DNA of 41,432 bases from an uncultured Mycoplasmatota bacterium. Lineage in GTDB: Bacteria > Bacillota_I > Bacilli_A > RF39 > UBA660. Below, in pieces: positions 7,317-41,315 of this stretch. The stretch is taken from assembly GCA_900551925.1 (NCBI GenBank), contig URXR01000001.1, positions 1 to 41,432 on the forward strand, read 5' to 3'. Each line of letters opens with the position of its first letter. Within the stretch, counting starts at the first letter, position 1. The notes under the pieces are model-generated. The model saw only the letters and a program-made list of their open reading frames with translations, had not been told where the DNA came from and ran no database searches. The translations under genes were made by a program, and so were the position numbers.

Positions 7317-7356
7317 TAATCAAAAATAGCTAAATAATTGGCTTAGTTAGCTATTT
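7317..7356 (-). terminator. Rho-independent terminator of the glycine-rich protein gene
   Basis: 10-bp stem aaatagctaa/ttagctattt (7324-7333 / 7347-7356) overlaps the stop codon. A T-run follows on the minus strand. Confidence 0.7.
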
Positions 7357-9524
7357 AAGTTAAATTTTTCGATATCATAATTATAATTATGAAGTAGCTC
7401 TTCTTCTGTTAAAGCTCTATTGTAAACACGGATTGAATATATTTCTCCTTGAAAATAGTAAGCGCTTTCTGAACCTCCTATATATATTCTATTTTGAGTT
7501 ATTTTTGGACTAAAATCCGCTGTTAATTCTTTGTATAAAGTTGCATTACTATAAGCTTTTAAATTTCTTTCTTTCAACACACTACTTACTAATTGTACTT
7601 TATTTAATTCTTCATCCAATATAGGTTTAGTTATATGTGAGGAATTAGTACTATCTGATATAGTATACGTAAAACCTCCGTCACCTATATCTGTTGATAA
7701 ATATCTTTCAGTCCATCTTCCATGATTTACTGTATTAAATATTATTTGATAAGTTCCTGTATTTCTTTTGGGTGTTACTAATATTTCTAGTGTATATTCA
7801 TCTGTTATATTATAAGTAGCATTAGTTCTATATGCATAATCATTTACTCCATCAAAGGATAAGTAATTAGAGTACCAGGTTGACCCACTTACTGTTACAT
7901 TATTATTATTACCACTTAAATCTTTCCAAGTTGATGAAGAATAAGCATGAGTAGCTCCGGTGTTAGCATAACCATCAAGCCAAAGAATTAAATTATCTTG
8001 GATATAACCATTATAGGTATCGGTATAAGCATTTATTCTGTGTCCATTACTTGTTTCTATACTTGCTTCATTTATTACTTCAGTCCATGAATTATTATCG
8101 CTACTTACTGAAGTTACATTATCATAATAGCTTCTTTGATCCCAAAAATGATTCCACACTGCTACTTCATCTAAATCATAGGTATCTCCTAAATCTACTG
8201 TTATACATTGGTTATTAGTTTGTGCTGAGGCTTGAGCAAAATGATAATCATCATTGGTGATATCTCCATCTGTTATTCTAGAATATGGTCTAGAACTCAT
8301 TTCGGGAGTTGTTCCTGTTACTGTTTTTCCTTTAGCTATGTTTACCCCATCTTTTATGGCTTGTAATTCTATCCAAAGATTATTATCATTAGCACTGCTA
8401 TAATTAATACAATTTTTTATGTACCTTACATTGTTTAATTTTTCTGTTTTCTTCTTTGGTTTATCATAGACATAAGTTATTTTAGCATAACCATTTCCTT
8501 CATTTTGTCCTGCTATCATTTTTCCTCCAATAAAGTATTTACCTGAATAATGAAGTGTTTGATTGGTGTGTTTTATTGTGGTACTTTCTTCCACACTATT
8601 TACTCCAGCATAACCACTTATATATGAGGAACCGCCGCCTCCTGGAGTTGATCCATTAGCCCCACCAGAACCTCCACTTCCGCCATAGTATCCTGAGCCT
8701 CCACCTCCACCACTACCGGCTATAGCAGTTGCTGCATTTGCTCCTCCGGAGCCACCTTTTCCAAAGGATCCTGCTGTTCCATTCGATTGAGCTGTATTCC
8801 ATTTTATTGGCTCTTCTCCACCACTTATTTGAGTACCAGGATTTCCTAAAGTACTTTGATATGTTGAAGATATTGGATCTCCTCCATATAATGCGCCACC
8901 ATGACCTTGCACACTAGACATCTCCCCTGCTCCTCCGGCTCCTCCTGCTGCTACCATTATTCTTGATATTAATGATGACATATTATCCCAATTTCCACTT
9001 ACTAATCTTACATCGGTTGCTCCTCCTCCGGTTGTTCCACACACTCCGCTTTTTGCAGGCTTAGCTATCCCTCCTCCATTAAATTCATATCCTGTATTTC
9101 TACAATTAGTATTTGCATTTGTCCCTTTACCTCCAACATAGAAATATAATTTTTCTCCTTGTTCCAAATGTATATAGCCACTTGTTTTTGCTCCAAATGA
9201 TTCATTACTAGTATCTGCCGGGGTACCTCCGCCAGCCATTTCTATATAATAATATCCGTCTTTTGGTACTTCGTATTCTTGTGAAGTTCCTGTATAGTTA
9301 AAAACAGTGGTTTTATTTATTAAAGTATCTACTACTACCTCTATGGTTTTTTCACCTTTTATTGTATCTGTAAATAAGGCATATGATGTTTTTGTCATAC
9401 TTACTCCAATAAATATGGCAATTAACATTATTCCAACGCAAAATAAAGATAGAAATACTTTATTTATTTCTTTTATATCTTTATTTAATTGTTTATAAAG
9501 ATACCCCCCCCCAAAGTCTCTCAT
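7347..9524 (-). CDS. Secreted multidomain protein: SipW/TasA-type signal peptide + glycine-rich domain + F5/8 type C (discoidin) domain + LamG/concanavalin-like domain
   Basis: Signal region ends ...SMTKTSYALFTDT (camelysin/TasA-type). Gly-rich motifs (YFYVGGKG, GGGATDVRL, VAAGGAGGAG, GSGGGGGSGYYGGSGGSGG). Discoidin-like ITDGD...CITVDLG...WNHFW. C-terminal LamG-like LSFDGVNDYA...YFQGEIYSIRVYNRALTEEE. Confidence 0.85.
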   Translation of the reverse strand: MRDFGGGYLYKQLNKDIKEINKVFLSLFCVGIMLIAIFIGVSMTKTSYALFTDTIKGEKTIEVVVDTLINKTTVFNYTGTSQEYEVPKDGYYYIEMAGGGTPADTSNESFGAKTSGYIHLEQGEKLYFYVGGKGTNANTNCRNTGYEFNGGGIAKPAKSGVCGTTGGGATDVRLVSGNWDNMSSLISRIMVAAGGAGGAGEMSSVQGHGGALYGGDPISSTYQSTLGNPGTQISGGEEPIKWNTAQSNGTAGSFGKGGSGGANAATAIAGSGGGGGSGYYGGSGGSGGANGSTPGGGGSSYISGYAGVNSVEESTTIKHTNQTLHYSGKYFIGGKMIAGQNEGNGYAKITYVYDKPKKKTEKLNNVRYIKNCINYSSANDNNLWIELQAIKDGVNIAKGKTVTGTTPEMSSRPYSRITDGDITNDDYHFAQASAQTNNQCITVDLGDTYDLDEVAVWNHFWDQRSYYDNVTSVSSDNNSWTEVINEASIETSNGHRINAYTDTYNGYIQDNLILWLDGYANTGATHAYSSSTWKDLSGNNNNVTVSGSTWYSNYLSFDGVNDYAYRTNATYNITDEYTLEILVTPKRNTGTYQIIFNTVNHGRWTERYLSTDIGDGGFTYTISDSTNSSHITKPILDEELNKVQLVSSVLKERNLKAYSNATLYKELTADFSPKITQNRIYIGGSESAYYFQGEIYSIRVYNRALTEEELLHNYNYDIEKFNLNS
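9504..9512 (-). repeat. G9 homopolymeric tract (C9 on the plus strand) in codons 5-7 of the glycine-rich protein gene
   Basis: Read directly: ATG AGA GAC TTT GGG GGG GGG TAT. It is the only long G/C run I saw in this AT-rich window. Confidence 0.95.
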
Positions 9525-9707
9525 TTTTTGTAGTTTGTTCCTTGTTTTTTATCATATTTCTCACTACTTTCTTTTAGTTTTTTATACATTTTTATTATAA
9601 CTTTTTACATGTAAAAATACAAGTTATTTTAATGCTTTTGATAAATTTTAAAAATTAAAAACTTTTAGATTTGATAAAATCATGATAAAATTATAATGGT
9701 GGTGTAA

Positions 9708-29290: not shown

Positions 29291-29299
29291 ATGGAGCGA
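29291..29299. repeat. Right copy of the 9-bp direct repeat ATGGAGCGA (attR core, inside the tRNA-Gly 3' end)
   Basis: Identical to 20047-20055. Confidence 0.7.
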
Positions 29300-29366
29300 A
29301 CGACGGGAATCGAACCCGCATCCTAGCCTTGGCAAGGCCATATTCTAACCATTAAACTACATTCGC
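29292..29366 (-). tRNA. tRNA-Gly (anticodon GCC), CCA encoded
   Basis: Minus strand reads GCGAATGTAGTTTAATGGTTAGAATATGGCCTTGCCAAGGCTAGGATGCGGGTTCGATTCCCGTCGTTCGCTCCA. It folds as a cloverleaf with a 7-bp acceptor stem, anticodon loop TTGCCAA, T-loop GGTTCGATTCC and discriminator U. Confidence 0.93.
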
Positions 29367-41218: not shown

Positions 41219-41315
41219 ACATACCTCCTTTTAAATACTTAAGACTCACTTTTAAGGTGCCTAAAGTTTAGGACTTTTACCTTTTCAATGTGGTTTAAAG
41301 CTGAGGCCTTAAACA
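41219..41315 (-). ncRNA. Probable ribosomal protein L21 leader (structured 5' UTR of rplU-prp-rpmA)
   Basis: About 95 nt of UTR between the predicted promoter and rplU, with stems such as cctaaa/tttagg and gtttaa/ttaaac. Firmicutes have a known L21 leader at this position. Not verified against a covariance model. Confidence 0.4.

Follow-up and report, generated by a model that had tools for sequence, protein, structure and literature searches.

What does a run of nine guanines do just behind the start codon of a surface-protein gene, in DNA that otherwise has no such run? The question is raised by a 725-amino-acid (aa) open reading frame (ORF) in the window, by which we mean the whole stretch of 41,432 nucleotides analyzed here. 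The coding sequence, supported by its translation, Pfam matches and homologs, lies at 7347..9524 on the minus strand. The run (9504..9512) reads CCCCCCCCC (C9) on the plus strand and G9 on the coding, minus strand, where it forms codons 5-7 (GGG GGG GGG). The protein begins MRDFGGGYLYK, and the longer start of its translation is MRDFGGGYLYKQLNKDIKEINKVFLSLFCVGIMLIAIFIGVSMTKTSYALFTDT. An earlier note on this DNA had taken the tract for a contingency locus. That interpretation is supported by differences between alleles that are confined to the tract, by the presence of the tract throughout a protein family and by an anomaly of codon usage; it has to be amended for the allele with eight guanines, in which a second ATG comes into frame. 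The G9 tract is, on the sequence evidence gathered here, very probably a translational phase-variation switch that operates at the level of DNA.

Tract length in near-identical sequences

The note had placed G9 in codons 5-7, within an AT-rich window with no other long G or C run, and this is indeed what the run-length table gives. The GC content of the window is 26.4%. Apart from C9, the longest C run is 4 and the longest G run, the next-longest overall, is 5. From the base frequencies of the window, about 0.001 G or C runs of at least 9 nt would be expected in 41 kb. The proposal of G9 as a slippage tract rests on this table, on in-silico editing of the tract, and on the occurrence of G8, G9 and G10 at the same site in other human-gut metagenome assemblies.

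All compared sequences are metagenome-assembly consensus. The members of the 90%-identity cluster of the window protein measure 725, 722, 683 and 727 aa, and their contigs were compared at the DNA level. Contig L008 (ERZ918182, human gut) aligns to the window without mismatch over 5169 bp, and the single gap is the extra G of a G10 tract. L009 (ERZ26781147) also carries G10 and differs from the window by four mismatches. L012 (ERZ28658396) differs by one substitution in 5178 bp: a T>G change next to the tract yields TT followed by G10, with the frame kept and the residue change F4L. L011 (ERZ28595337) carries G9, with 19 mismatches and one gap over the 3.7 kb aligned; farther upstream, insertion sequence (IS) DNA replaces its leader. 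L010 (ERZ27307911) carries G8, out of frame and behind a different leader. Across these five contigs (L008-L012), the tract and the base adjoining it are thus the most changeable positions of the locus.

The same behavior is seen at a second locus, a paralog adjoining a PrsW-protease gene in a related organism. Here, contigs L048-L051 carry G10 and L052/L053 carry G12, and the alignment of L052 with L048 over 3345 bp has no mismatch and one 2-nt gap, the tract itself. At this locus, 13 contigs carry the G10 allele (P0125) and eight the G12 allele (P0126). Each tract length was found in independent samples and with different assemblers. A comparison of tract length among relatives had been set beforehand as the refuting test, with an invariant G9 as the refuting outcome; instead, G8, G9 and G10 were seen at the same locus.

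A translated tract and its start codons

Is the tract part of the translated message, or does the true start lie downstream and leave it in the 5' untranslated region? The latter was considered and rejected. Residues L13, K15, D16, E19, I20 and K22, which lie downstream of the tract and upstream of M33, the first internal methionine, do not vary among 15 aligned homologs with 56-94% identity to the window protein; M33 itself sits inside the hydrophobic core of the signal segment. The DNA differences of paralogs in the stretch of residues 13-22 affect mainly the third base of the codon, with TAT/TAC and CTT/TTT as examples. Since the residues just after it are conserved, the tract is translated, and the claim that it lies within the coding region is borne out.

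A second candidate explanation, that the tract is a by-product of a glycine-rich protein, was also rejected, on codon usage and on the make-up of the other glycine runs. In the window's other 32 ORFs, 4.3% of the glycine codons are GGG, and so are 6.6% of the remaining 91 in this gene; the other glycine runs of the protein (GGG, GGGG and GGGGG) are written in mixed GGA/GGT/GGC codons. At this site, relatives that do not have the tract present GG or GGR, or have no glycine. The leader peptides on the 5' side of the tract are not conserved in sequence and are merely rich in K, N and R. As far as codon choice tells, the tract is a device of the DNA and not a requirement of the protein.

Editing of the tract in silico defines what each length would yield. 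From the ATG at 9522..9524 on the minus strand (ATG 9524), the full ORF is read at G6, G9 and G12, and peptides of 9-13 aa are read at G7, G8, G10 and G11; G10 gives MRDFGGGVSL before a stop and G8 gives MRDFGGGIFINN before a stop. That ATG 9524 is in use as a start is suggested by contig L018, because the short interrupted tract there (G6A) is locked in frame with the homologous ATG. An AAGGA motif (9539..9543, minus strand), read from the sequence 14 nt upstream, is a possible Shine-Dalgarno (SD) sequence for ATG 9524, with a long spacing.

A second ATG (9553..9555, minus strand; ATG 9555) occupies a conserved leader position, and its homolog is the SD-associated start in L024, L027 and L032. 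It is preceded by a leader segment, AGAAAGTAGTGAG, that is kept in paralogs, and the conserved leader and ribosome-binding segment directly upstream (CTAAAAGAAAGTAGTGAGAAAT, 9556..9577, minus strand) recurs in L008, L012, L018, L024, L027 and L032. Tract editing places ATG 9555 in frame only at G8 and G11, where it opens a 735-aa ORF with the N terminus MIKNKEQTTKNERLWGGYLYK; at G9 it opens a 20-codon upstream ORF that ends at 9493. At G10, the only in-frame start codon is a TTG whose G is the first of the tract (9512..9514, minus strand), with no evident SD sequence. Gene callers chose this TTG for G10 alleles (P0122, 722 aa, MGGGYLYK).

The earlier note had held that a gain or loss of one nucleotide ends translation. 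This stands for ribosomes that start at ATG 9524, and fails at G8, where ATG 9555 opens the 735-aa ORF; on this reading of the frames, an allele that has lost one G is not necessarily OFF. For most paralogs, the sole SD-associated start is the ATG at the conserved leader position, and in most paralog leaders ATG codons occur in a single frame, which is ON at G9 or G12. The leader in the window has start codons in more than one frame, each open to the tract: ATG 9524 at G9/G12, ATG 9555 at G8/G11 and TTG 9514 at G10. Because start codons lie in two frames, with the TTG in the third, the window allele may be more than a binary switch. A promoter scan of the intergenic region gave matches no commoner than in shuffled sequence, and no promoter is claimed.

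Among the compared alleles, the window, L011, L012, L027, L002 and L052/53 have the SD-associated leader ATG in frame, and L008, L009, L010, L024, L043, L025, L029, L001a, L022, L046/47 and L048-51 have it out of frame. In most of the out-of-frame alleles (L043 was left out of this check) the downstream ORF is open for more than 700 codons.

One subfamily has leader DNA that is open in two frames (L001:3280-3370, L025:2930-3010; P0057, P0092, P0021, P0113 and P0066). Its N termini MKKEQNQDSKHSF-GGG and MKK(N/Y)KIK(I/T)ANIRS-GGG come from a single stretch of DNA translated in adjacent frames; the ATG stands in one or the other according to the allele. Past frameshifts in this subfamily seem to have been compensated by relocation of the start codon, and a short A6-7 run directly 3' of the ATG may contribute.

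The tract across the family and its possible explanations

Homologs of the window protein at E<=1e-10 number more than 1000, mostly from gut metagenomes, and those listed are unnamed proteins of public metagenome or genome assemblies. A scan of genome contigs found relatives of at most 55% identity, in Hadza-gut metagenome-assembled genomes (MAGs) labelled 'uncultured Bacilli bacterium' and in one further bin labelled 'Lachnospiraceae', which we suspect to be mis-binned. The literature was searched for this protein family and for homopolymer switches in these gut Bacilli, with no specific result, and the family of surface proteins with an ALK-like glycine-rich domain (GRD) appears to be undescribed.

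Relatives with about 50-65% protein identity carry a poly-G tract at the corresponding place in the leader, and in every case it is the coding strand that has the guanines: G9 in L014 and L027; G10 in L015, L022, L024, L025, L032, L043 and L001; G11 in L029; and G12 in L002. Interrupted or decayed tracts, in frame, are present in L018 (G6A), L001b (G6CG3) and L001c (AGCGGTGGGG), and L017, L019 and L005 are relatives without a tract. In the 288 kb of fetched loci, all 24 of the G or C runs of at least 7 nt are leader tracts. Single samples hold many copies of the gene, about 10 in ERZ824488 (most at a similar coverage of ~6x) and at least six in ERZ857965. In a Hadza-gut Bacilli MAG (L001:3320-11278), three paralogs stand in tandem, with G10 out of frame, G6CG3 in frame and AGCGGTGGGG in frame; as judged from their tracts, hypermutable and 'locked' versions adjoin each other here.

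The lengths of predicted proteins provide a control. Tract-bearing 90% clusters (P0057, P0021, P0053, P0007 and P0092) have members of 722/723/714/680, 864/865/782, 852/853/848/845/820 and 725/726/736/683 aa. Tract-less clusters (P0026, P0069, P0037, P0039 and P0065) are near-uniform, with 859 aa in 13 members, 952 in 10, 717 in 8, 867 in 14 and 872 in 12. On long contigs, the N termini in the tract-bearing clusters fall into three classes: those with the full leader followed by GGG, those that begin at the tract itself (MGGG or LGGG) and those that begin at an internal methionine. This N-terminal scatter is tied to the tract, because the tract-less clusters are near-uniform in length.

Gene callers are inconsistent in the starts that they assign to family genes. 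Contigs, too, often start or stop at the 5' end of these genes (L013-L016, L021-L023, L026, L030, L033), and L015:1-10 is the G10 tract itself. Such ends fit assembly breaks caused by tract heterogeneity, by repeated leader and signal-peptide sequence, or by a multicopy IS.

An IS3-like element was found in some of the leaders. In L032 it is inserted in the leader ORF of one family gene (691-2105, with junctions at ~690 and ~2105), 15 nt upstream of the poly-G. It encodes OrfA with HTH_Tnp_1 and OrfB with HTH_21 and rve; its inverted repeats, ~40 bp long, are imperfect, and an AAG was probably duplicated at the target. The IS end seen there recurs at the homologous position in L014:1-15 (a second paralog, from the sample of L032) and in L011:1-53 (the ortholog of the window gene, from another sample), which suggests that the IS inserted site-specifically or was spread by gene conversion. 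The differing upstream sequence of L011, L014 and L032 had also raised the possibility of an invertible promoter or shufflon; this was rejected, as the foreign sequence is the end of the IS3-like element. The element was sought in the window and is absent there.

The IS terminus (L032:2040-2126; L014:1-30) presents an SD-like AAAGGAAG and an ATG, from which an ORF runs outward into the surface-protein gene (MKRNKEKVTNETPSENCPKNILTS|KKNRLGGGYFYK...). This IS-derived leader ORF is in frame at G9 and G12: L014 keeps it open, and the G10 of L032 shifts it. The N terminus of a database protein, P0091, is the same IS-derived leader. The IS may thus replace the leader and the promoter rather than merely inactivate the gene, with the poly-G still setting the phase.

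How would such a switch work? Slipped-strand mispairing in replication would add or remove guanines at the tract, and tract length would set the frame between the leader start codon or codons and the signal peptide with the mature protein. At G9 or G12, ATG 9524 would be in frame, and at G8 or G11 the conserved upstream ATG 9555; at G10, where only the SD-less TTG is in frame, the gene would be OFF or expressed at a very low level. At out-of-frame lengths, translation would stop after about 10-20 aa and nothing would be secreted. With many paralogs, each with its own tract, a population could display many combinations of proteins. The locus combines the features by which contingency loci are recognized: a hypermutable length (at least ~8 nt), a position between the start and the functional part, variable length with conserved flanks, and upkeep against composition bias. 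Repeat enrichment near N termini is a documented mark of phase variation (PMC3315296). High-frequency reversible switching within a lineage, the starts used, the effect at the protein level and the function of the protein are what we infer from these features. We hold it possible, with clear reserve, that the locus belongs to a large, undescribed contingency-gene system of low-GC gut Bacilli, in which paralogs are independently gated by poly-G and the IS perhaps adds a second layer.

Several points weigh against a simple ON/OFF switch at this tract. At G9, ATG 9524 is served only by the distant SD-like AAGGA (14 nt), and the conserved ATG 9555 is out of frame; the window allele could be weakly ON rather than fully ON. 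The commonest length is G10 (~14 of the 24 tracts), which is out of frame in most leaders. Its predominance could mean that the OFF state is favored, or that G10 alleles are expressed otherwise, by RNA-level slippage or from non-canonical starts. The length of a homopolymer can be mis-called in a consensus, though the lengths here recur in independent samples. The data being assembly consensus, within-sample heterogeneity, the rate of switching and its reversibility can only be inferred, and the organism is uncultured.

The predominance of G10 leads directly to the first of three rival explanations. RNA polymerase could stutter on G9-G12, or the ribosome could shift, instead of or besides switching of the DNA. 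Each allele would then give in-frame and out-of-frame messages side by side, and expression would be constant and low rather than heritably ON or OFF. Long homopolymers provoke transcriptional slippage in bacteria, and slippage would explain why an out-of-frame length is the commonest across many loci while the downstream ORFs stay intact. The known bacterial cases, though, are mostly at A or T runs. Tract length differs heritably between otherwise identical genomes, so that a change at the DNA level is certain, and in-frame G9/G12 alleles coexist with out-of-frame ones, as DNA switching predicts. The two mechanisms are not mutually exclusive, and we regard slippage of the RNA as an unlikely account of the tract.

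The out-of-frame states could also be read as neutral decay at a mutational hot spot, in which a redundant family accumulates frameshifts that mark pseudogenes-to-be and no switch is selected. The number of copies per genome (~10 in ERZ824488, at least six in ERZ857965), the majority of out-of-frame consensus states and the IS insertions in leaders all agree with this. Decay is hard to reconcile with out-of-frame alleles that keep stop-free ORFs of more than 700 codons at 26-30% GC, or with identical haplotypes found in both states. Moreover, the tract is kept at the same site in paralogs that are ~50% identical, while other G runs are absent and GGG codons avoided, which argues for selection on the tract itself; we consider neutral decay very improbable. 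Finally, the true length might be constant, with G8, G9, G10 and G12 produced by homopolymer errors in sequencing or assembly. The assemblies are from short-read metagenomes throughout, poly-G is a known trouble spot, and the breaks of several contigs fall on the tract or close to it (L015 begins at G10). Against an artefact stand the G10 in both a MEGAHIT contig (L008) and a SPAdes-style NODE_ contig (L009), the G9 in both the window and L011, and the T>G change of L012, which is a substitution and not an indel. At the second locus, G10 is on 13 contigs and G12 on eight, and a 2-nt difference is improbable as a consensus error. We give constant length next to no credence.

The encoded protein, its setting and known systems

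What would a DNA switch at this tract control? From its N terminus, the coding sequence specifies a short leader rich in K, N and R, a hydrophobic signal or anchor segment, an ALK/LTK-type glycine-rich domain, a discoidin-like domain and a LamG/ConA-like lectin domain. The glycine-rich domain (8472..9263, minus strand) is a match to Pfam PF12810 ALK_LTK_GRD at residues 88-351, covering profile positions 6-242 of 243 with 121.3 bits against a cutoff of 24.5 (E=8.7e-35). Weak Pfam matches follow, to the discoidin-like F5_F8_type_C_2 (residues 417-499) and, at the C terminus, to a sialidase N-terminal lectin-like domain; homologs have precomputed PF22633 and PF13385 Laminin_G_3 annotations. These matches and annotations, together with an AlphaFold2 (AF2) model, delimit putative carbohydrate-binding domains, discoidin-like (417-499) and LamG/ConA-like (~540-720), at 7365..8276 on the minus strand. 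In the AF2 model this region is mostly beta-strand, with block-mean predicted local distance difference test (pLDDT) values mostly of 50-92. Overall, the model (from a 15-sequence alignment) has a mean pLDDT of 50.6, and values below 50 over the glycine-rich domain leave the fold there unconfirmed. A phmmer search of the PDB with the window protein gave no sequence match.

The hydrophobic core of the signal peptide or anchor (VFLSLFCVGIMLIAIFIGVS, residues 23-42; 9399..9458, minus strand) lies downstream of the tract and is conserved in homologs. It is followed by the motif SYALFTD (residues 47-53; 9366..9386, minus strand), in which S47, Y48, A49 and F51 are invariant in the alignment of 15 homologs. 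This motif is probably the signal-peptide cleavage region, and we take it to resemble SipW/TasA-type cleavage motifs, for which NCBIfam gave no match. At E<=1, NCBIfam held no family for the protein or for its signal peptide; for a SipW-type peptidase, only the 10 neighboring ORFs were considered. ALK-like glycine-rich/TNF-like modules are receptor-binding domains in phage tail-fibre adhesins (PMC9608196). Binding of a ligand at the surface is suggested because GRD-type modules bind receptors in these adhesins and because the C-terminal domains are of lectin type. The product is probably a secreted or surface-anchored adhesin or a ligand-binding surface antigen, and its earlier description as a secreted glycine-rich/lectin-domain protein agrees with the ALK_LTK_GRD match and the weak lectin-type ones.

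The gene stands in ordinary chromosomal surroundings. The 10 neighboring ORFs include those for leucyl-tRNA synthetase (LeuRS), pyrimidine-nucleoside phosphorylase, a DUF1538 protein, a GntR regulator and an ATP-binding cassette (ABC) transporter. The genetic code is the standard one, with ORFs intact under table 11 and TGA a stop. An Rfam scan of the window found one tRNA (29295-29366, minus strand) and a ribosomal protein L21 leader (41232-41306, minus strand; 36 bits, exactly the gathering score), and nothing beyond these two. The L21 leader fits an origin in Firmicutes/Bacilli.

Homopolymer phase variation is established in pathogens (Neisseria, Haemophilus, Campylobacter, Mycoplasma) and hardly documented in uncultured gut commensals. 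The switch proposed here implies a stochastic variation of the cell surface in these small-genome gut Bacilli, for which immunoglobulin A (IgA), phage or changes of niche presumably supply the pressure. There is a practical side as well: gene callers misplace starts at the tract or at an internal methionine (680, 722 and 714 aa for one gene) and assemblies break there, so that pan-genome and strain analyses of these taxa are distorted unless the switch is recognized.

The arrangement is that of a classical contingency locus, and several known systems can be set beside it. Mycoplasma and other Mollicutes (M. hominis Vaa, M. fermentans P78) share low-GC small genomes, families of surface proteins and ON/OFF frameshifts in a 5' homopolymer with the present case. 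They differ from it in that their tracts are poly-A or promoter spacers and their lipoproteins are unrelated to the window family; a further difference is the standard code of the present organism. Among the closest known cases are pilC1 and pilC2 of Neisseria, in which a G homopolymer near the 5' end of a surface adhesion-related gene shifts the frame ON or OFF by its length and, as in the window gene, lies in the signal-peptide coding region. Unlike the window gene, pilC is from a Gram-negative pathogen and present in two copies, and PilC and the ALK-GRD/lectin protein have neither sequence nor fold in common; the window allele, for its part, has start codons in more than one frame. The genic pilC tract is given as G9-20 (PMC5953494, which cites Jonsson et al. 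1991 for the switch). Neisseria opa offers the parallel for the family as a whole: multicopy surface adhesins (up to 12 copies), each with its own repeat in the signal-peptide region, switch independently and give combinatorial display. The repeat in opa, however, is the pentanucleotide CTCTT/CTTCT, and its products are outer-membrane beta-barrels from a different phylum.

Campylobacter jejuni has poly-G/C contingency loci with ON/OFF switching (PMC8437040). It shares an AT-rich genome in which rare poly-G/C tracts of ~8-13 nt are concentrated in surface-structure genes. Its tracts are mostly in glycosyltransferase or modification genes and at varied positions, whereas here they occupy one leader position in one paralogous family of a Gram-positive-lineage commensal. 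For the arrangement of starts, the precedent is licA (lic1) of Haemophilus influenzae, in which start codons lie in two of the three frames and the number of CAAT repeats picks the start (PMC2212159). With ATG 9555 (G8/G11) and ATG 9524 (G9/G12) both upstream of its repeat, the window allele is licA-like. It differs in that the repeat of licA is a tetranucleotide, its product is a cytoplasmic choline kinase, and its alternative starts are experimentally shown, where those of the window are deduced from the reading frames.

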